The translations under genes and the position numbers were made by a program. A DNA stretch of 13,691 bases from a virus. Its lineage: Duplodnaviria > Heunggongvirae > Uroviricota > Caudoviricetes. A model generated the notes under the pieces. It was not told the DNA's origin, made no database searches, and was given only the letters and a program-made list of their open reading frames with translations. The stretch lies in IMG/VR virus record IMGVR_UViG_2585427780_000001; one strand, 5' to 3'. This document shows, one piece after another, positions 1,478-13,691 of this stretch (position 1 is the first letter of the stretch; the number at the start of each line of letters is the position of its first letter).

Positions 1478-1807
1478 CTATGCCACGACCTGTTCAAAAT
1501 CTGCCGTTATGGTTACCCACAGCGCCCCCACGCTTGCCGACCATTTACGACAAACCACCCTAATCGGTTTCCAGTCATAAGGTGGCGTCCACTGAAATGC
1601 GCGGACGCCACCGTGCCGTTCCAGAAAGGCTTTTAAAGATGGGTGTTCACATTTACGAACACGTATCGTCACGCTGTAAGTCGACAACTGGTTATTCAGT
1701 CCCGCCGCACGACGCTGTTCATAACCATCGCCCAGCTTCACTGTCACCACTTTCGGCTCTGATACCACATTCATATCCGGGCGCACTTTCCAGTGAAACG
1801 TCTCCAT
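1478..1807 (-). CDS. M: Minor tail protein M, 109 aa
   Basis: ORF 1478..1807, 109 aa as for lambda gpM. Translation METFHWKVRPDM ... FEQVVA resembles lambda M (MKTFRWKVKPGM ... FEQVVN, from memory). Its ATG at 1807-1805 overlaps the H stop TAA (1809-1807) by 1 nt. Confidence 0.85.
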   Translation of the reverse strand: METFHWKVRPDMNVVSEPKVVTVKLGDGYEQRRAAGLNNQLSTYSVTIRVRKCEHPSLKAFLERHGGVRAFQWTPPYDWKPIRVVCRKWSASVGALWVTITADFEQVVA

Positions 1808-4491
1808 TACCGATATGCTCCACTTAACCGACCACCATCACGGGCCTGCTGTTGCATAAAGTCCGCTGCTGCTTTTTTCCCGAGGTCATAAACCACCTTC
1901 AGGGCAGCCGGACCTATCTGCCCGTTCGTGCCATCGTTATTGATCTCGATGTTGTACTGCGGGGCAAACATCGCCATACCTGAACCACCAATATCCGCCA
2001 CAACCCCCAGCTTACCGTCAGCACCACGACGCAGAGGCAGAATGGCTTCAGGCCCAGCTTCCCCCATCACACCTGCACCTTTTGCAAAAGCAAAAAACGT
2101 CGGACGGTTAACCACCGTGCCACTGTAGCGACTCAAATCAGCAGACTGATAAACACCACCATCAGCATTGGGCGTCACACTGGCAGTTGCTGCACTCCCC
2201 CAGCCAAACGCCGAACCAATCCCCTTAACTGTCTGCATCATGGACATCTGAGCCATGATTTTTGCCAGATCAGAAAGGAGCGAGGCGGTAAAAGATTTGA
2301 AGTTCAGTTTTCCGGTGGTACAGAATGTAGCCAGTGCATTACCTGCACTATTAAATGCCGCTGTAAGCATCTGCTCCGCAGTGCCTGCCGCATTATCCGC
2401 ATCTGCCGTGAAATTCTGAAACGCCCGCATGGCACCGTTTTTCCAGTTACCCTGAGCAATTTCAAGCTGTTGCCAGTAACGGCGATTCTCATTCAGTTGC
2501 CTGTTCAGGCTCTCCGTCAGCGCCTGCTCGGCCTTTCTGTAGTCATCCGTGTTATATGTCCCTTTCTGCTCACTATCCCGCCTCAACTGCTCCAGCTGTT
2601 GCTGGTATTTCTGGCGAAGGCTCAGTTGTACCTGATATCGCTGCCGCTGCTGATCACCCATACCCACCGTGGCGATATCCAGGTCATGTTGCTGACGCTG
2701 AGCGCGCTCTTCTTCAGCCAGTTGACTGGTCAGCTGAATTGTTTTTTTCTTCAGATCGTTGAGTGCCGTCTGTTTCTGAAGCTCCTGCTGTTTTACATCC
2801 AGCAGCGTCAGTGCCTGAATCAGTTCATCTTTACGGGCCAGCACACTCTTTTCATCTGCCGTCAGTTTTTTCCCGTCCAGATCGCTGATGCGCTGCTGCA
2901 GAGCCAGAAGCTGTTTATGCGCTTCTGTCATCTTTTCAGTGGCAATGCCTGCTGACTGTCTTGCAGCAGCAATCTGTCCTTCCACCTGTGCCTGTTGCTG
3001 GCTGTACTGCAGCAATAACCGGGTGGCCTCATCATTACGGGTTTCGCGTGTTTTTTTCTTACCGGATGCCAGGGCTTTCTCGTAACGTTCATTTTCACGT
3101 TGTATCGCCGCATCCCTGACAGCCTGATCGGCGTACTGCATGGCATTAATACGCGCAATTTCACGCTGATGTCGTGCTGCTTCCGTTTCATTCATCCGGT
3201 TCAGTGCAGCATTTTCAGCATTACGGCGTTTCTGTTGCTCCTGATAATTCCGCTCTGCCTGCTCTTTTGCATCCTGCAAATCCTTCTGGCGTTTTTTCTC
3301 CTGAAGATCGTTAAGACGCTGCTGATCGTATTCAACCTGAGAAGATGATGCCGTCCAGGGGAGTCTTTTCGCCCGCGACACTTTCTCCTGTAAAGCGGCA
3401 ATCTGTTCATCCAGCGAGTCTTCACGACCAATATTCATGGCCGCATCCCAGAAACGACTCCACAAATCAGACAGATACTTCAGCGTACTGCCAAGCGCAT
3501 TGAGGTTATTATCAATATCCGCAGTACGCCGACCGGTTTCCTCTGCCAGTGCAGACATGGCTATCCGTGCAGCATCACTGGACCGCCCCTGCTCCCCAAG
3601 GACGCGTATCTGCTCAAGCTGAGTGGCAGTAAGAAAATGCAGCTCATTGTCCAGAGCCTTCGCGGCATTTACAGGATCATCCTTCAGCCGCTTAAACTGA
3701 TTTATGGTATCGCTGACCGACTGGCCAACCGATCGCTCCATCTGTGCGGCAGCTCTCGCCACCATACCGATATCGTTTCCACGAAATGCACCACTCCCCA
3801 CCACCTGAGCCAGCGCACCGGCTGCAGCATGTTGCGTGATACCATTCCCGGAAATAGCACGACTGAGCGTCCACAGCTGCCCGGCAGTAACTCCGGCATA
3901 ATGCCCCGTCAGCGACAACTGGCGGTTAAATTCTTCCCCCTCCTTCTGACCGTCATACCAGGCTTTACCCAGACCATAGACGGCCGCGGCAATACCGCCA
4001 ATAACCCCGCCAAGCATCATGCCTTTCGGTGACATCAGTGTGTCTATCCATCCGGCACGGTTAGCCAGCGTTATCCCGGATCCCCTCAGCGCCCCTAAAT
4101 TGCCGCGGGCCAGTTCACCTATCAGAACGCCTATCTCCTGGCGGGCTGCTGCACTTTTCAGACCCAGCGAATGCGTGGCTTTTCCTGCCTGCTCCATTTT
4201 GCGGATATACACTTCTGCAGCACTGCTTACCCCCAGCTGGGCTGCCTTAGCACGAAGCAACTCAGAAGATGAAAGATTCTGGCGGGTTGCCTGCTCTTTA
4301 AGCTGACGGATAAACGCCACTTTCTGTCGGGTAGCCTCTTCCTCAGCCTGTGTAAGAACACGGGTTTTCGCCGTAACCTCAGAAATCAGCGCCAGATAAT
4401 CCTGCTGACCAATCCCGCCACTGTTTCTGGCCTGTCGGATCTGCTGCTGAATACGCTGTAATTCCTGCAGCCCCGCACTGGCCTGTTTCAC
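1807..4491 (-). CDS. H: Tail tape measure protein H, major 894-codon segment downstream of an in-frame TAG (GTG at 4491 is only the first in-frame start-like codon after the stop)
   Basis: ORF 1807..4491. Has a hydrophobic Gly-rich segment (LMSPKGMMLGGVIGGIAAAVYGLGKAWYDGQ), a long charged Q/E/R/K-rich coiled-coil-like middle, and a C-terminus NNDGTNGQIGPAALKVVYDLGKKAAADFMQQQARDGGRLSGAYR like the lambda gpH C-terminus. It is in the same frame as 4504..4881. Confidence 0.85.
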   Translation of the reverse strand: MKQASAGLQELQRIQQQIRQARNSGGIGQQDYLALISEVTAKTRVLTQAEEEATRQKVAFIRQLKEQATRQNLSSSELLRAKAAQLGVSSAAEVYIRKMEQAGKATHSLGLKSAAARQEIGVLIGELARGNLGALRGSGITLANRAGWIDTLMSPKGMMLGGVIGGIAAAVYGLGKAWYDGQKEGEEFNRQLSLTGHYAGVTAGQLWTLSRAISGNGITQHAAAGALAQVVGSGAFRGNDIGMVARAAAQMERSVGQSVSDTINQFKRLKDDPVNAAKALDNELHFLTATQLEQIRVLGEQGRSSDAARIAMSALAEETGRRTADIDNNLNALGSTLKYLSDLWSRFWDAAMNIGREDSLDEQIAALQEKVSRAKRLPWTASSSQVEYDQQRLNDLQEKKRQKDLQDAKEQAERNYQEQQKRRNAENAALNRMNETEAARHQREIARINAMQYADQAVRDAAIQRENERYEKALASGKKKTRETRNDEATRLLLQYSQQQAQVEGQIAAARQSAGIATEKMTEAHKQLLALQQRISDLDGKKLTADEKSVLARKDELIQALTLLDVKQQELQKQTALNDLKKKTIQLTSQLAEEERAQRQQHDLDIATVGMGDQQRQRYQVQLSLRQKYQQQLEQLRRDSEQKGTYNTDDYRKAEQALTESLNRQLNENRRYWQQLEIAQGNWKNGAMRAFQNFTADADNAAGTAEQMLTAAFNSAGNALATFCTTGKLNFKSFTASLLSDLAKIMAQMSMMQTVKGIGSAFGWGSAATASVTPNADGGVYQSADLSRYSGTVVNRPTFFAFAKGAGVMGEAGPEAILPLRRGADGKLGVVADIGGSGMAMFAPQYNIEINNDGTNGQIGPAALKVVYDLGKKAAADFMQQQARDGGRLSGAYR

Positions 4492-4503
4492 ACTGTCAAT
4501 CTA

Positions 4504-4881
4504 ACGATAAAACGCAGCAGCCGCTTTATCCTGAGCCTCCGCCAGAGCCATGGCCTGCGCCTGTTCATCGCGCATTTTCTGGCTCAGCGCCTCCATGCGC
4601 TGGCGGGTTTTCTCCACCTCGCGGGCCATGCGTTCATGAGCCTGTGCGTTCTTCTCCACCGTCTGCGCATGGACGGAGGCGGCTGTTGCAGCCGAAGAAG
4701 CCGCCTGCGTTGTCTGCCGGGCGGCCTGAGTCTGACGCTCCATAAAACGCTGCATACGGGCAGAAGACCGTTCTGCATCGCTGGCGGCACCATTCAGAAG
4801 GTTTTTGATACGGGGAATTTCATTTTTAAACTCTGCCGCATCAATCCCCAAATCAATGACCAGGTTGGCTATCTGGTCCAT
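4504..4881 (-). pseudogene. H: Tail tape measure protein H, N-terminal 126-codon segment ending at in-frame TAG (4503-4501)
   Basis: ATG at 4881-4879 preceded by GGAGGTG 8 nt upstream. Translation MDQIANLVIDLGIDAAEFKNE... resembles the lambda gpH N-terminus (MAEPVGDLVVDLSLDAARFDEQ, from memory). Same reading frame as 1807..4491 (4911-4491 = 420, divisible by 3), separated from it only by TAG plus 3 codons. Confidence 0.75.
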
Positions 4882-5203
4882 AACGCACACCTCCGGAAAT
4901 ACCTTCTCCAAGATGCATCAGTTCTTCGTCCGTTCGCTCCGGTATCCCGTTCTCTTCCGGTAAAAGGCTGAAATCAGCCACCGCAGCATCACTGCTGCCG
5001 GACACCATTCTCACGATCAATGCCTTCAGCGAGGCAAACTGCGCATCCATCCACACATCACTGAAGCTCTGCATCCGGAAATAATCGCCCCACTCACCAA
5101 GCTCAGTGGCCGACATTTCCGACAGCATCCGCCGCCAGTCTGCCCGCCGGAACTCCCGGGCAAGCCGCATGACAAACTGCATTTCCCGCGTCAGGACTTT
5201 TCC
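4853..5203 (-). CDS. T: T portion of tail assembly chaperone gpGT, reached by programmed -1 frameshift from G
   Basis: ORF 4853..5182 is in the -1 frame relative to G. That frame is open upstream to a stop at 5218-5216 and overlaps the last codons of G. Sequence GGAAAAG (5203-5197) lies 1 codon before the G stop, where lambda has its G/GT slip site. Its 3' end overlaps the H start by 29 nt. Confidence 0.7.
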   Translation of the reverse strand, partial: GKVLTREMQFVMRLAREFRRADWRRMLSEMSATELGEWGDYFRMQSFSDVWMDAQFASLKALIVRMVSGSSDAAVADFSLLPEENGIPERTDEELMHLGEGISGGVRYGPDSQPGH

Positions 5204-7380: not shown

Positions 7381-7656
7381 TTACTCAATAAAGATCATTG
7401 GCTTACCGTTAAAACGTTCATGCCGTGTGACCGTCCATTGTTGTCCGTCATAAACAACGCGATCCCCGCGCCGTGGGCGGTATCCCGAAGAAAACACCAC
7501 CAGAGAGACCGCAGGTCCGGACAGAGCATTCAGCTCTGCCAGTGTTTCTCCCGGGATCACAGTCATATCGACATCATTAATCGAGGCTGTCTTTCCCATC
7601 TTTCTGACCGTGATCGCATCCATACGCGCTGCCAGCCGGGAAAAGGGATCAGACAT
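7381..7656 (-). CDS. Head-tail joining (head completion) protein, FII-like, 91 aa
   Basis: ORF 7381..7656. ATG at 7656-7654 overlaps the upstream gene stop (ATGTCTGA, 8 nt). The C-terminal motif RRGDRVVYDGQQWTV resembles lambda gpFII RRGDTLTIGEENFWV (from memory). Sits immediately upstream of Z. Confidence 0.6.
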   Translation of the reverse strand: MSDPFSRLAARMDAITVRKMGKTASINDVDMTVIPGETLAELNALSGPAVSLVVFSSGYRPRRGDRVVYDGQQWTVTRHERFNGKPMIFIE

Positions 7657-7972
7657 TGAGTTTTACCGGCACTTCTTCTGCACTGGTTCCGGCATCTGCC
7701 CAGACAACCCCGACCAGCGGATCAGAGCCGCTGTTAGTCAACTGAACTTTTCCGGACTTCAGATAAACCTTCTTACCCGTTTTCATGTCATCCGTTTTCA
7801 GCTTAGGCAGCATAAACACACCTTCGGTCAGGCCGTCGCCTGTTTCACCCTGTGGAATATCGGTCAGCGCTACCGCAAAAACATCACCCACCTGCACCAG
7901 ATCTCCGCTGCTGATGGCTGCACTGGCAACAATCGCCACCGTTTTTCCTTCTTCTACAAAATTCTTTGCCAT
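7649..7972 (-). CDS. Small head protein of uncertain function (candidate decoration or head-stabilisation protein), 107 aa
   Basis: ORF 7649..8017. ATG at 7972-7970 (MAKNFVEEGKTV...) is preceded by GGAG 7 nt upstream. Lies directly after the capsid gene and its hairpins and before the FII-like gene. No recognisable catalytic motif. Confidence 0.6.
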   Translation of the reverse strand: MAKNFVEEGKTVAIVASAAISSGDLVQVGDVFAVALTDIPQGETGDGLTEGVFMLPKLKTDDMKTGKKVYLKSGKVQLTNSGSDPLVGVVWADAGTSAEEVPVKLNV

Positions 7973-8015
7973 AACTGTCTCCGCACAGCCCCGTTCAGGG
8001 GCTGATTTCAGGTAC

Positions 8016-8035
8016 AAAAAAAGCCCTTACGGGCC
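8016..8035 (-). terminator. Weak terminator-like hairpin after the capsid gene (GCCC-GUAA-GGGC followed by U7)
   Basis: Plus 8023-8034 gcccttacgggc preceded by aaaaaaa (8016-8022). On the minus transcript this is a 4-5 bp GC stem with a GNRA-type loop and then UUUUUUU, 23 nt after the capsid stop. A second, 7-bp hairpin (plus 7986-8004, CAGCCCC-UGAAC-GGGGCUG) follows. Confidence 0.4.
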
Positions 8036-8058: not shown

Positions 8059-10017
8059 TTACGCCGTACATTTCACCAGACCGCGGTGATCAACTGGCGC
8101 GACACCGGCGTCAATACGCACTTTCGTTGTCACGCCATCCACACTGAAGCCCTCCATCTGATCAATATATGGCGTATCCACACCGTTGAGATAAGCCACT
8201 TCAATCGTATCGGAGCCTTTTGACGCAGCCAGGTAGAAGGTGGTCTGGCTGTTATCATCAAGACGAGGCTCTGCAATAACGGTCGCAAAATCTTTCACCG
8301 GGTTAATAATACCGGCGTTAATGTCAGCCCCCTTGACACTTGAGGAGCGAATGACCTGGTTAGCAACAGACTCCATCGCCGTCGGTACCAGTACGAACGC
8401 AGGACGAATATTCAGATGACGCTCCCCCTCTTTCTGAACGCGCATCAACTGGCGGGCTTTATCCAGCGATGCCACGTCCATTGCAGCGCTCTCCAGTACG
8501 TTTGCATGTTTCGCTTTATCGAACAGACTTACATTATCTGTGGAGATTTTCGGGTTAGACGTCAGAATGGCATAAACCAGATCGGCAATAGTGGATTTCG
8601 CCGCACGGCCCAACTTCATCGGGACATCGGTCAGCATATTCAGATAATCATTGATAATGGCCTGACGGGTGATACTGAACAGCTCGCCATAGGTCGCCAG
8701 TGCAATAGTGGCCTGTTTATCTCCGGTGGTGACGTATTTATATTCCGCCCCTTCACGCACCTGACGCAGAGCACTGAAGCCCCCCATACCCACACGATGG
8801 GCAATTTTAAAATCAGACAACTGACCTGTCCGCGTCCACTGTTCATAGGTTTCAGGGGCATCTTCCCAGCCCTGCAGAATGGCTTTGTTCGCAACATCCA
8901 GCAGAATATTACCGAAGTCAGACGTACTGTGTGTGAACGCCGCACCGACCATCTGCATCGGGTTATAACTGGAAACCCCAATACCCCGTTCAGTCAGTGA
9001 CATACGGGCATATTCACGCAGGGTCATCCCGTTGTAGACATTATCACGTTCGGTTTTTTCAAATCCGGCACGCGCCATCAGCGCCTGGCGGATCCCGTCC
9101 CCCACAAAATTACCGTTACCGGCATAAATATGAGCCGGGGGATTTTTATTGGATGGCGTGGACTCGCGCCCCATCTCGTTCAACAGCTTTTCGCGGGCCT
9201 GCTCCAGCGAACATTCAGGATCGGCAAGACACTGAGCCTGCAGCGTCTGATAACGCCCGCCAAACATGGCAAACAGATCATTAATACCGTTTACACGCGC
9301 TTTTTGCTCTGCCAGTACCTGCGCACGGATGCTGTTTTCATCCACCACGGGTGCTGCTGCCTGCACTGGCGTCCGGGAGGCTTCAGGTTCATTATCCTGT
9401 ACGCGTGGAGCACTGTTGCGTGGCGGAGTAATCATGTTTCGAATGGATTCCGGCATCTTTTTAAATTCCTCTGTACGTTTTGACTGAATACATGCCATTG
9501 CCTTAACGGCTGGCGTTACCTGATCAGCAAATCCATGTGCCAGACATTCGGCACCGGACATCCAGGTCTCATCCGCCAGCATGGCAGCAATTTCATCGGT
9601 GGTTTTCCCGGTTTTCTGTGCATAAGCGGGTAACAGAACCGCCTCAACTTTATCGAGCAGGTCGGCATAGGTGCGCATGTCCTCCGCATCACCGCCCGTA
9701 AAGCCAAATGGTTTATGAATCATCATGAAGGTGTTTTCCGGCATAATGACCGGGTTTCCCACCATCGCAATGACCGACGCCATTGATGCCGCCACACCGT
9801 CGACATAAACGGTAATGGACGCACCATGTGTTTTCAGCGCATTAAAAATGGCGATGCCTTCAAAGACATCGCCACCCGGTGAATTGATATGGAGATTAAT
9901 GTGGGTGATATCGCCCAGTGCATTCAGATCACTGATAAACTGCTTCGCTGTAACACCCCAGAAACCAATCTCGTCATAAATATAAATATCCGCGTCACTC
10001 TGGTGACCAGCCTGCAT
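8059..10017 (-). CDS. Fused prohead protease (ClpP-like) - scaffold - major capsid protein, about 652 aa
   Basis: ORF 8059..10278. The first ATG after the portal stop is at 10017-10015 (MQAGHQSDADIYIYDEIGFWG...); earlier in-frame starts would overlap the portal gene out of frame. The N-terminal part looks ClpP-like (INSPGGDVFEGIAIFNA...ASMASVIAM), the middle is Ala/Gln/Glu-rich, and the C-terminal half looks like a phage major capsid protein. Confidence 0.85.
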   Translation of the reverse strand: MQAGHQSDADIYIYDEIGFWGVTAKQFISDLNALGDITHINLHINSPGGDVFEGIAIFNALKTHGASITVYVDGVAASMASVIAMVGNPVIMPENTFMMIHKPFGFTGGDAEDMRTYADLLDKVEAVLLPAYAQKTGKTTDEIAAMLADETWMSGAECLAHGFADQVTPAVKAMACIQSKRTEEFKKMPESIRNMITPPRNSAPRVQDNEPEASRTPVQAAAPVVDENSIRAQVLAEQKARVNGINDLFAMFGGRYQTLQAQCLADPECSLEQAREKLLNEMGRESTPSNKNPPAHIYAGNGNFVGDGIRQALMARAGFEKTERDNVYNGMTLREYARMSLTERGIGVSSYNPMQMVGAAFTHSTSDFGNILLDVANKAILQGWEDAPETYEQWTRTGQLSDFKIAHRVGMGGFSALRQVREGAEYKYVTTGDKQATIALATYGELFSITRQAIINDYLNMLTDVPMKLGRAAKSTIADLVYAILTSNPKISTDNVSLFDKAKHANVLESAAMDVASLDKARQLMRVQKEGERHLNIRPAFVLVPTAMESVANQVIRSSSVKGADINAGIINPVKDFATVIAEPRLDDNSQTTFYLAASKGSDTIEVAYLNGVDTPYIDQMEGFSVDGVTTKVRIDAGVAPVDHRGLVKCTA

Positions 10018-10063
10018 CCTGAACCAGGAATTATTCTTCGGACTGGTCGTCGGTGTACTGCGG

Positions 10064-11539
10064 CTACTGTCGTTTCGTTGCGGCACTGCTGCCTCCTTTA
10101 TCACTGGCCGGATCGGTATCAAATACCAGGTCCAGCTTGCGGTTTTCATCAATTTCGGCCTTGCGCCGACGTTTGACATCATCCGGATTACGACCACCTG
10201 CACGTACCCAGTCTGATTCTGTCGCCGCTCCACCACGAATCTGGATTTTCCAGGCCTCAGCCTCCTTAACAGGGTCAATCCACGGCATCACCGGTCCGGA
10301 ATACACCGCGGTATACAGTGAAGAACGGTCAAGATCGCGGGGTAGCCTGATAACACCGGATGCCACAGCCTGTTTCAGCCAGGCACGATACATCGGGCGG
10401 GTGACGGCACCAATAAACCAGTCCTGCAGGATCAGGTAGCCATCAGTGGATTCAACCAGCTCCTGACGCTGGGCGCTGTAAGTGCCGTTATAGTTGCGCG
10501 CTGTACTGGAAAAACTCAGACGACTGCCCGCCGCCACGGCACGCAACTGAGCATTACGAAAAGTTTCAAGGTTAGGATTTGGGCGATCCGACTTCACCAT
10601 TCCGATTTCTTCGCCGGGTTTCAGATCGTCGTAAATAATGCCTGGCTGAATGGTAAGCTCGCGTTCATTCTCCTTGCTGTCATTACCATCCGTTTCATAG
10701 CTCTGTCCGTCGCCTTTGCGGATGTACATCCCCAGAGCAGCGGCGACCCTTGCTGCAGTCAGCTCAGAATCTTCATACTCTTTCAGGGCGCTGAGGCGGA
10801 TCAGCACACCGGACAATAAAGACGTCCCGCGCATCTGGTGCAGACGGCGAACAAATTTAAGATGCAGCATTCGCTCTGCATCCACTTCTTTGGTTTCCAT
10901 CTGCCGTCCGGATACAGGACGACTTTTATACACCAGATATTTTTCGGGACGCCCCCAGTCATCAACAAACACGCCCTGATTCAGCCTGTTGCTCTCATCA
11001 CTGGTCATGGGAATAAAGTCCGGCTCGAGCGCCTCCAGCCAGAAATGAACACCGGCAGAAGGCGTCAGGCTGTTTATGCGCCCGGAAACCATCTGGGCAA
11101 ACACCTCACCATCGCGCAGCCAGGTACGAAGCATCAGACGTTCCAGCATCGGACGGGTAAACTGCCCGGTGACTTCCGGGCTGACAGACCATTCACTCCA
11201 TCGGGTGCGAATCTCCGCAGCCAGGTCACGGGCAATGGCCCCATTGCGTAATACCGGATGTGGCTCGACAATAATCCCGTTTTTCCCCACCACCCGTTCT
11301 TCCAGCTTGTCAAATACACCAATAACCAGATCGTGGTTGTTATCAAGGTAACGGGCCTGCTCACGTAACGACACGGCCCCGTACTGGCTTAACTGGTCGG
11401 CAGTTCGGTTCTCCCGTCGGGCTTTGTGTGTCCGCGTCGTTTTTACGGCCTCATAAGCCTGGATCACCGCACGGGAACGCAGCCTTGCCGCTTTCCATCC
11501 TGGTGAAAAAACGCCAATCACATCATCAAGAATTGCCAT
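10064..11539 (-). CDS. Portal protein, about 491 aa
   Basis: ORF 10064..11611. ATG at 11539-11537 overlaps the W stop (TGATG) and has GAGG 5 nt upstream. Size and position between the W-like gene and the protease-capsid gene are those of a lambdoid portal; the start codon is uncertain (11611 is possible). Confidence 0.8.
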   Translation of the reverse strand: MAILDDVIGVFSPGWKAARLRSRAVIQAYEAVKTTRTHKARRENRTADQLSQYGAVSLREQARYLDNNHDLVIGVFDKLEERVVGKNGIIVEPHPVLRNGAIARDLAAEIRTRWSEWSVSPEVTGQFTRPMLERLMLRTWLRDGEVFAQMVSGRINSLTPSAGVHFWLEALEPDFIPMTSDESNRLNQGVFVDDWGRPEKYLVYKSRPVSGRQMETKEVDAERMLHLKFVRRLHQMRGTSLLSGVLIRLSALKEYEDSELTAARVAAALGMYIRKGDGQSYETDGNDSKENERELTIQPGIIYDDLKPGEEIGMVKSDRPNPNLETFRNAQLRAVAAGSRLSFSSTARNYNGTYSAQRQELVESTDGYLILQDWFIGAVTRPMYRAWLKQAVASGVIRLPRDLDRSSLYTAVYSGPVMPWIDPVKEAEAWKIQIRGGAATESDWVRAGGRNPDDVKRRRKAEIDENRKLDLVFDTDPASDKGGSSAATKRQ

Positions 11540-11751
11540 CAGAACCTCGCCAGCCGATACCCGGGATGCCCCCGTCGTCGTGTAATCAGAGCCGCAAGGC
11601 GGCGCTCCCACTCCTGCCGTCCCTGCCTGATCTCAGATAAGTTTTCCATGGTCATCTGCTGACCATTAAAGGTGACGGATTTTCCGTCCAGCACCGCCAT
11701 TTCAGCTTCCGTATAACGCTGAATCATGGCTTCGATATCATTCTGGTTCAT
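11539..11751 (-). CDS. W: Head-tail joining protein, gpW-like, about 70 aa
   Basis: ORF 11539..11757. ATG at 11751-11749 forms an ATGA overlap with the terminase stop and has GGAGG 6 nt upstream; the ATG at 11757 has the SD abutting it. Size and position (terminase then W then portal) match lambda W. Confidence 0.7.
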   Translation of the reverse strand: MNQNDIEAMIQRYTEAEMAVLDGKSVTFNGQQMTMENLSEIRQGRQEWERRLAALITRRRGHPGYRLARF

Positions 11752-13371
11752 AACCATCCTCCGGAAGTCAGCCAGGGGTTAACATCGTCAGTTACTGTTT
11801 TCTTCCGTTTTTGTTTTTTAACAGGCGTGGATACCGGTTCCGGTGAGGATGACGGTTCGGTACTGTCCGGGACACACTCCAGCCAGGTTTCCCGGCTCGC
11901 CCACTCCGGTGCATCCGGCCAGCGGATCTTTTCGTATCCATGCAGAATGACCAGAGCCTCGGCATACACCATCAGGTCAAAAGCTTCGTTGGCACCGCGA
12001 CCCGGCTTACTCCATTTCCCGTCACTGCTCCGCTCTTCATACGTCAGTTCGTCGTAAAACCAGCTCCCCAGCCAGTCAGGGAAATGCACATAGCCGGGAC
12101 CTGGCGAGTCACGCCATAACGCGTTATTCACCCGGTCTTTCAGTGCATCCGTCTGAAGAAGCCAGAGCGGCACATCACCTGCGGCCTGCGCCCGTCGGCC
12201 CGTTCGTCCGGTGTTATCAGGGAATGTACGGGGGATCAGTTTTGCGCGCCGGATGCTGTCGCCCTTAAACAGGTAAATACGTTTACCAAGGCCATCACGA
12301 CGGCAACGACGCCAGAATTTATAGGCATTATCAGTGACCCCGTCTTCACCGCCGGAGTCCACCGCCATTGCCATCAGTCGCATTTGTTGAGAAGGATCGG
12401 AGGCCAGCGGCCAGCTTTTATGAAAAACATCCGTCAGCAGGACATCCCAGTCTTCCGGATAGCTGGCCGGATCAATTCGCTGGCTCTCCCCGTCGCTGTC
12501 ACCGCGCAATGACTGCGTGATGTTGTAACGATCAATAATCCAGCGTTCGCCACGGCTGCCATAGCCCGTTACCTGAACCACAAAACGGCGATGACGTCCC
12601 GCCTGCACATCCACTGTCGCCACAAGAAAATTAACGCCATCTGGCACACTGCGGGAAGGAACTGGCTCTGCCCGCTGCTCAAGCAGTTCACTTTTTCGTT
12701 GCTCCATGCTGGCGCGGGGAAGATAAGGTAATCCCCAGTCGGTGTTGATAACCGCCCTGAGTGTTTCTTCACTTCCTGTCGCTTCATACTCCTGTTCTGC
12801 AGTCAGTAATTTGTAAACCAGTTGCGCCCAGGTCTGATACGCAGCAGCTGGCCCTTCCATCCAGAAACTGGCGATACGGGAGCGGCGCGGTTCACCGGAA
12901 ACGTTGCCGTTACAATCAATGACCTGACCTTCACGCAACCAGACTCCTGCACTATTGAGCTCACGCTTTTTCTCCGCAGTGATAATGCCGCTGCAGTGCG
13001 GGCAAAGTAGATACGCCGCCTCACTGGCTTTAAAGGGATCCGGTTCATTACGGTAGCCGGTCATGGCATCCATGGCTGGCTGAAAATATTCACCGCAGTG
13101 CGGACATGGCCAGTACCAGCGGCGGCGGTCACCACGATTGTAAAGGGAAAGAATACCAGTCGTCGGTGGCGCTTCATGAGGCGACTTACGTCGCCATTTG
13201 CTGTCGCAGATGTCACGTCCCGGCGAGCTCTCCACCAGAGTCATCCCGGCGGACATAAATGTGGTGGTACGTTTTGAGGCCAGGGAGAAACCATCACCCT
13301 CGCTGTCGATATTCTCCGGAAAACGGTCGTAATCGGTTAAGGCGACAAACCGGTAATCCGACGACGACATA
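11748..13371 (-). pseudogene. A: Terminase large subunit (gpA-like), 5'-truncated by IS1 insertion; about 540 C-terminal codons remain
   Basis: ORF 11748..13385. Contains WPCPHCGEYF (compare lambda gpA ACPHCGEEQ) about 93 codons in, which suggests roughly 135 N-terminal codons are missing. The reading frame runs directly into the IS1 terminus at 13372; the apparent start MESL is encoded inside IS1. Confidence 0.85.
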
Positions 13372-13691
13372 GGTAATGACTCCAACTTATTGATAGTGTT
13401 TTATGTTCAGATAATGCCCGATGACTTTGTCATGCAGCTCCACCGATTTTGAGAACGACAGCGACTTCCGTCCCAGCCGTGCCAGGTGCTGCCTCAGATT
13501 CAGGTTATGCCGCTCAATTCGCTGCGTATATCGCTTGCTGATTACGTGCAGCTTTCCCTTCAGGCGGGATTCATACAGCGGCCAGCCATCCGTCATCCAT
13601 ATCACCACGTCAAAGGGTGACAGCAGGCTCATAAGACGCCCCAGCGTCGCCATAGTGCGTTCACCGAATACGTGCGCAACAACCGTCTTCC
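13372..13691 (-). mobile_element. IS1 insertion sequence, partial (about 320 bp of about 768 bp; continues beyond window end)
   Basis: 13372 onward reads GGTAATGACTCCAACTTATTGATAGTGTTTTATGTTCAGATAATGCCCGATGAC..., which I recognise as the IS1 terminal inverted repeat and adjacent sequence. It contains the 3' end of insB. Confidence 0.9.
13387..13691 (-). CDS. insB: IS1 transposase InsB, 3' partial (C-terminal about 101 codons; 5' part beyond window)
   Basis: Minus-strand frame translates ...[100 protein letters not shown], matching the IS1 InsB C-terminus. The frame is open to the window edge. Confidence 0.88.

Follow-up and report, generated by a model that had tools for sequence, protein, structure and literature searches.

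A single gene for a ClpP-like prohead protease, a scaffold-like domain and the major capsid protein in a Gifsy-2-type lambdoid prophage

Introduction

The head-shell functions of tailed phages can be distributed over genes in different ways. Phage lambda splits them between separate genes, namely C and Nu3 (protease and nested scaffold), E (capsid protein) and D (decoration protein). In HK97, the protease gp4 is encoded by a separate gene and belongs to another fold family, and gp5 comprises the delta domain together with the capsid protein. A tripartite capsid gene has reportedly been described for Salmonella phage Gifsy-2. According to later publications, the Gifsy-2 capsid has T=7 geometry and bears a trimeric protein on every three-fold axis (PMC8814770, Table 1; PMC8538268, introduction). 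In the passages of citing papers that touch on this phage, its mature capsid protein is stated to be released by proteolysis (PMC8814770, PMC8538268, PMC12315714), and the part of an automated capsid-protein survey that deals with Gifsy-2 records that no major capsid protein (MCP) was obtained for it (PMC8814770). A further example is gp5 of Pseudomonas phage MD8, where one gene provides protease, scaffold and MCP; the description of MD8 contains no data on the cleavage site (PMC8508860). A preprint on CBASS escape, concerned with protease-scaffold fusions of other phages, was set aside as not relevant.

Two families of such fusion proteins have been curated in NCBIfam. NF045540 (scaf_prot_MCP1) carries the title [quoted passage not shown], and NF045541 (scaf_prot_MCP2) represents a second family of protease/MCP fusions. 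The arrangement is already known: it is represented by a curated family model, is picked up by routine annotation and is frequent in E. coli.

Here, we present a computational analysis of a fusion gene of this type on a viral stretch of 13,691 nt (IMG/VR record IMGVR_UViG_2585427780_000001), which is referred to in its full length as the window. An earlier note, made from the letters of this DNA alone, had proposed one gene for protease, scaffold and MCP with a parallel in Gifsy-2. The gene was delimited, its domains were compared with sequence profiles and predicted structures, and its distribution and surroundings were characterized.

Results

Extent and start codon of the fusion gene

The fusion gene for ClpP-like prohead protease, scaffold-like domain and MCP is located on the minus strand at 8059..10086, ends with a stop codon at 8059-8061 and encodes 675 aa (73.5 kDa). 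The earlier note had reported a single uninterrupted frame of about 652 codons at 8059-10017 and had not given the strand. Translation of this shorter ATG form on the minus strand confirmed 652 aa plus a stop codon with no internal stop, and both peptides which had been named for the protease region, DADIYIYDEIGFWG and INSPGGDVFEGIAIFNA, are present in it.

The open frame extends upstream to 10278, and a GTG codon at 10086..10084 offers an alternative start. It is preceded at a distance of 5 nt by the Shine-Dalgarno (SD) sequence AAAGGAGG (10091..10098, minus strand), which is itself part of the 3′-terminal portal coding sequence. The predicted duplex with the 3′ end of the 16S rRNA (anti-SD) amounts to -11.6 kcal/mol for GTG 10086, compared with -2.7 kcal/mol for ATG 10017. 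An alignment of 88 full-length homologues revealed conservation of W21 and of an aromatic residue [YF]22, both encoded upstream of the ATG. The residue aligned with the ATG itself is Ile in 42 of the 88 sequences and Met in only 19. Furthermore, PGAP annotates the same single CDS of 2028 nt and 675 aa in NZ_AP021893, a genome 99.96% identical to the window. Because of the strong SD sequence, the conserved residues upstream of the ATG and the identical PGAP call, GTG 10086, 23 codons upstream of the ATG, is most likely the true start. With this start, the fusion gene overlaps the final 23 nt of the portal gene.

Protease domain

The N-terminal part of the protein forms a ClpP-fold serine protease domain (aa ~22-200; 9487..10023, minus strand). 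The Pfam family CLP_protease matches aa 31-191 (9514..9996) with an E-value of 2.5e-36, and a search of PDB sequences aligned the motifs AAS(101)M and MIH(124)KP with solved ClpP structures. Ser101 (9784-9786) and His124 (9715-9717) are thereby aligned with the catalytic Ser and His of ClpP, and the acidic residue Glu173 (9568-9570) with the catalytic Asp, all three on the minus strand. Conservation was assessed in 88 fused homologues, which have identities of 33-95%. All of them retain Ser101, His124 and the oxyanion-loop glycines G71-G72 without exception. Position 173 is acidic in 84 of the 88, being Glu in 77 and Asp in 7, while the canonical third triad residue of ClpP is Asp.

The fold itself was examined in an AlphaFold2 (AF2) model. 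Its N-terminal domain matched ClpP structures in Foldseek (E 5e-13, TM ~0.8 normalised to the target), and the monomer model contains the long “handle” helix of the ClpP fold at aa 134-159. With this fold and with the catalytic Ser and His in their canonical motifs, the domain belongs to the ClpP type (peptidase S14). The SppA model TIGR00706 gave a weak match to the fusion protein (E 8.5e-5), far under its cut-off. Profiles from Pfam and NCBIfam, the PDB sequence search and the Foldseek comparison of the predicted fold all agree on the N-terminal ClpP-like protease that had been suspected from the sequence.

Middle part

Directly after the protease domain, a [FY]-x3-P motif is found (FKKMP, aa 208-212; 9451..9465, minus strand), with F or Y at its first position in 79 and P at its last in 82 of the 88 fused homologues. 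The central region between protease and capsid parts (aa ~200-376) comprises a disordered linker and confidently predicted helices. The linker is rich in Pro and Ala (aa 223-245; 9352..9420, minus strand), poorly conserved and modelled with a pLDDT below 50. It is followed by a helical module of three helices in the AF2 models (aa 250-308; 9163..9339, minus strand), which resembles a scaffold or delta domain. Comparable parts of other phages, namely the delta domain of HK97, Nu3 of lambda and the central domain of the Gifsy-2 protein, suggest that this module may serve as scaffold.

The middle part had been described before as a low-complexity linker rich in Ala, Gln and Glu. This description stands for a short disordered Pro/Ala-rich stretch only: composition, alignment and the AF2 model consistently restrict the Pro/Ala-rich, gap-rich and low-pLDDT sequence to about 30 residues (aa ~219-250). 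It does not stand for the remainder, as the residue entropy of aa 192-376 is ordinary (4.06 bits versus 4.03-4.08 bits in the flanking domains), with an A+Q+E content of 25% versus ~20% in the flanking domains. As modelled, most of this region folds into a helical domain, to which a short disordered linker is joined.

Capsid part and candidate cleavage zones

The capsid-protein part covers aa 324-675 (8062..9117, minus strand) and consists of N-terminal helices and an HK97-fold body. The Pfam family Phage_capsid_4 matches aa 377-672 (8071..8958) with an E-value of 2.4e-53. The full-length AF2 model has a mean pLDDT of 86.5, with low-confidence segments at aa 1-17, 223-245 and 316-323, and shows four helices at aa 327-409. 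For the capsid fold, a separate model restricted to aa 246-675 was built, because ClpP matches dominated the PDB search with the full-length sequence as well as an initial Foldseek comparison. In the predicted structure, the capsid body contains a long hairpin at aa ~419-473 corresponding to the E-loop, a spine helix of 28 residues at aa 483-510 (8557..8640) as well as P and A domains, and thus displays the elements of the HK97 fold. Together with the Pfam match, this supports the assignment of the C-terminal half to a capsid protein, as claimed from the sequence before.

There are two candidate zones for maturation cleavage. The low-confidence loop PPAHIYAG (aa 316-323; 9118..9141, minus strand) would yield a product of 38.4 kDa, and cleavage at aa ~370-380, where the Pfam capsid domain starts, would yield one of 32.6 kDa.

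Family membership and relatives

The fusion protein scores 979.4 bits with NF045540, for which the cut-off is 475, and the alignment extends over aa 32-674 and profile positions 2-651 of 652. PHROG 133 likewise matches it end to end. A single ORF with both domains, a central domain and a position between portal and cement genes places the gene in the NF045540 or Gifsy-2 type. Membership in NF045541 was not found, as the score of 393.8 bits falls below the cut-off of 525 and only aa 223-672 match; capsid and scaffold parts are shared with that family, whereas the protease part has no match.

The proposed parallel with Gifsy-2 proved to be close. The Gifsy-2 protein (STM1034.3n / YP_001700678) has the same three-part architecture in a single ORF and is 70% identical over 669 aa, with linker and scaffold regions more diverged than the capsid part. 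The gene order is also the same, with small terminase, large terminase, a small ORF, portal, fusion gene, cement and tail genes. In contrast to Gifsy-2, the copy described here resides in E. coli, at a Qin-like locus and in a defective prophage. Essentially the same gene is found in the isolated E. coli phages mEp460, cdtI, Ayreon, Tritos and HannyBb (98-99.6% nucleotide identity), the first three of which form plaques, and the homologous gene of Stx-converting phages is ~78% identical at the nucleotide level. In the Stx1 phage VT1-Sakai (AP000400.1, ~78%), the match falls into two segments that are separated by IS629 features, and the gene appears interrupted. Pseudomonas phage F10, which likewise combines protease, scaffold and MCP in one gene but has a host of another genus, is more distant (56.5% identity over 97% of the protein).

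Similarities with lambda include portal and terminase proteins of the lambda family, the linkage of protease and scaffold and the presence of a cement or decoration protein; the Gifsy-2 relative also shares the T=7 geometry. However, lambda C is a protease of the SppA type (S49), whereas the fusion protein is of the ClpP type (S14). HK97 uses covalent chainmail, whereas a gene for a cement protein is present in this prophage. Moreover, one protease domain per capsid subunit, or ~415 per T=7 shell, would be a stoichiometry far from that of HK97 or lambda.

Distribution and annotation

Six complete genomes that are independent of each other share the identical 2028 nt, and at ≥99% identity the sequence is present in 873 records. 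Because of this recurrence, the fusion is not a sequencing artefact. In total, 2125 of 5426 complete E. coli genomes (39%) carry the fusion gene. Among the best 148 representatives at 50% identity, 129 contain protease and capsid parts in one protein, so that at least 129 distinct 50%-identity clusters have the same fusion. In phage records the situation is different: only 80 of the 1643 with a homologue hold the full fusion, and ~1560 hold a ClpP-type protease gene only. The arrangement had been called known but uncommon, which is appropriate for isolated phages but not for enterobacterial prophages.

In the representatives P0167, P0233 and P0190, scaffold and capsid parts are present, but the ClpP domain is absent or the N-terminus does not match; split genes, another type of protease or fragments may explain them. 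About ten “portal-protease-capsid” proteins of 1158-1159 aa (P0003, P0008-P0017) were considered as a programmed fusion and rejected. The positions of the frame switch differ between them and are scattered, and they are therefore attributed to random indels or assembly errors. Such portal-capsid chimeras can arise in databases because, within the portal gene, 64 codons ahead of the capsid start are free of stops in the capsid frame (10064-10278).

The labels of the gene in phage records vary and comprise protease C, Clp protease, Nu3, protease/scaffold, head maturation protease and major head protein. In addition, these records often place the gene start at the ATG.

Gene neighbourhood

The gene belongs to a lambda-type late operon on the minus strand, in the order large terminase, small ORF, portal, fusion gene, hairpin, cement and tail genes. 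The upstream gene encodes a lambda-family portal protein of 491 aa (10064..11539, minus strand; stop codon at 10064-10066; Phage_portal_2, E 2.1e-82). Downstream, a capsid cement or decoration protein of 107 aa is encoded at 7649..7972 on the minus strand (Phage_cement_2, E 2.3e-20), which is annotated as “head decoration” in mEp460. Between the capsid and cement genes, a terminator-like structure at 8012..8035 (minus strand) consists of a GC hairpin (8035..8022) and a run of seven T. The hairpin begins 23 nt after the stop codon of the fusion gene, and the mEp460 annotation has a rho-independent terminator at the same place. No second protease gene was found in the head module, either in the ORF list or in the PGAP annotation. 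A search of the window against Rfam returned no RNA family, and a promoter scan found sites no more numerous than in shuffled sequence.

Further observations concern the adjacent genes. An ORF of 91 aa (7381-7656, minus strand) matches the Pfam family “Gifsy-2” (PF13856), described as “ATP-binding sugar transporter from pro-phage”, and is named “DNA breaking-rejoining protein” by PGAP. Its position suggests a head-completion or connector protein, and both names therefore look doubtful. At the gpG/gpT junction (5181-5193, minus strand), a lambda-type GGGAAAG slippery site was not seen inside gpG; the only heptamer of the form XXXYYYZ at this junction is GGGAAAT, directly past the gpG stop codon.

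State of the prophage copy

Over 13,371 nt, the window and NZ_AP021893 are identical except for 5 mismatches, one of which gives the tape-measure gene (1807-4881, minus strand) an in-frame TAG at 4501-4503 in place of the CAG (Gln) of NZ_AP021893. From 13372 to the end of the window at 13691, the sequence belongs to an IS1 element, including its terminal repeat GGTAATGACTCCAAC and a transposase segment that corresponds to the C-terminus (DDE_Tnp_IS1; 13387-13653, minus strand). The large terminase gene is cut by this IS1, so that its C-terminal 545 codons alone are left in the window (11748-13385, minus strand), its ATPase domain lacking the first ~120 profile positions. With the large terminase gene disrupted by IS1 and an amber codon in the tape-measure gene, the prophage is defective and probably cannot yield infectious particles unaided. 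The capsid ORF, its SD sequence and the catalytic residues are intact in this defective prophage.

The corresponding prophage in NZ_AP021893 adjoins the Qin-type genes gnsB, ynfN, cspI, rzpQ, rrrQ and essD (15888-20028). Internal stops are annotated in the terminase and gpJ genes of that prophage, and relatives of the prophage are thus commonly decaying.

Discussion

The gene is very probably the head-shell gene of a lambda-like prophage of the Gifsy-2 / mEp460 / cdtI type, in which protease, linker with scaffold-like module and capsid protein are produced as one, presumably self-maturing chain. From Gifsy-2, HK97 and lambda we infer the autoproteolytic release of the capsid protein, and the order of assembly, the T=7 geometry and the binding of cement protein would follow the same models. 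Translation would start at GTG 10086, within the final codons of the portal gene. The capsid parts would then gather on the portal and form a T=7 procapsid whose interior takes up the protease and scaffold parts, and crowding within the shell might switch the protease on. Removal of the protease and scaffold parts would leave a mature capsid protein of ~33-38 kDa. Packaging of DNA would expand the shell, and trimers of the cement protein (7649..7972) would lock its three-fold positions.

Several other readings of the locus have to be weighed against this one. An artefact, with protease and capsid genes that are in truth separate brought into one frame by a sequencing frameshift or the loss of a stop, can practically be dismissed. 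Nothing specific speaks for it beyond the frameshift chimeras known in databases for the neighbouring portal gene, and it is opposed by the six identical genomes and the 873 records at ≥99% identity, by the single CDS in isolated phages, by the fused state of 129 of the best 148 diverse representatives and by the curated NCBIfam model for the fusion. An inactive pseudo-protease, with the ClpP-like domain acting only as scaffold and maturation left to a host or another phage protease, appears very unlikely. The Glu in place of Asp at the third triad position would fit such a role; however, Ser101, His124 and G71-G72 are invariant in 88 of 88 homologues, and the head module contains no other protease gene. 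A second product made from the same gene is unlikely as well, albeit less so. An internal in-frame start, for example the ATG of codon 211, would give a protease-less scaffold-capsid protein (aa 211-675) resembling the nesting of C and Nu3 in lambda, and would set a low ratio of protease to capsid. A protease domain on every subunit indeed seems wasteful, a weak SD-like GAGGAA stands in front of codon 211 (duplex -6.0 kcal/mol), the Met of this codon is shared with Gifsy-2, and P0167 and P0233 carry only scaffold and capsid parts. On the other hand, position 211 is Met in only 12 of the 88 fused homologues, the linker holds no other internal start with a good SD sequence, and P0167 and P0233 may be gene fragments.

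A different matter is whether the copy in this prophage is still in use. Chances appear evenly balanced that it is a silent relic, intact only because the decay of the prophage is recent, and that no particles are made. The terminase gene cut by IS1, the change from CAG to TAG in the tape-measure gene and the internal stops in the 99.96%-identical relative point in this direction, as do deletion chimeras of the fusion gene with tail and terminase genes among the database homologues. Such a relic would be compatible with, and not opposed to, the identification as protease and capsid protein, and ORF, SD sequence and catalytic residues are intact; moreover, the missing functions could be supplied by further lambdoid prophages of the same cell. 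It is highly improbable that the intact gene is kept in use to supply shells for other lambdoid prophages or satellites or to form an encapsulin-like compartment, or that it provides a second, protease-less product.

Returning to the proposed self-maturing head-shell protein, the gene is an intact copy of a well-known and very common head gene of lambdoid prophages, real but ordinary. Its main value lies in annotation: in enterobacterial prophages of a very common group, labels such as protease, Nu3 or scaffold conceal the MCP, and recognising the fusion together with its GTG start, which is probably the true one, leads to the correct capsid gene.
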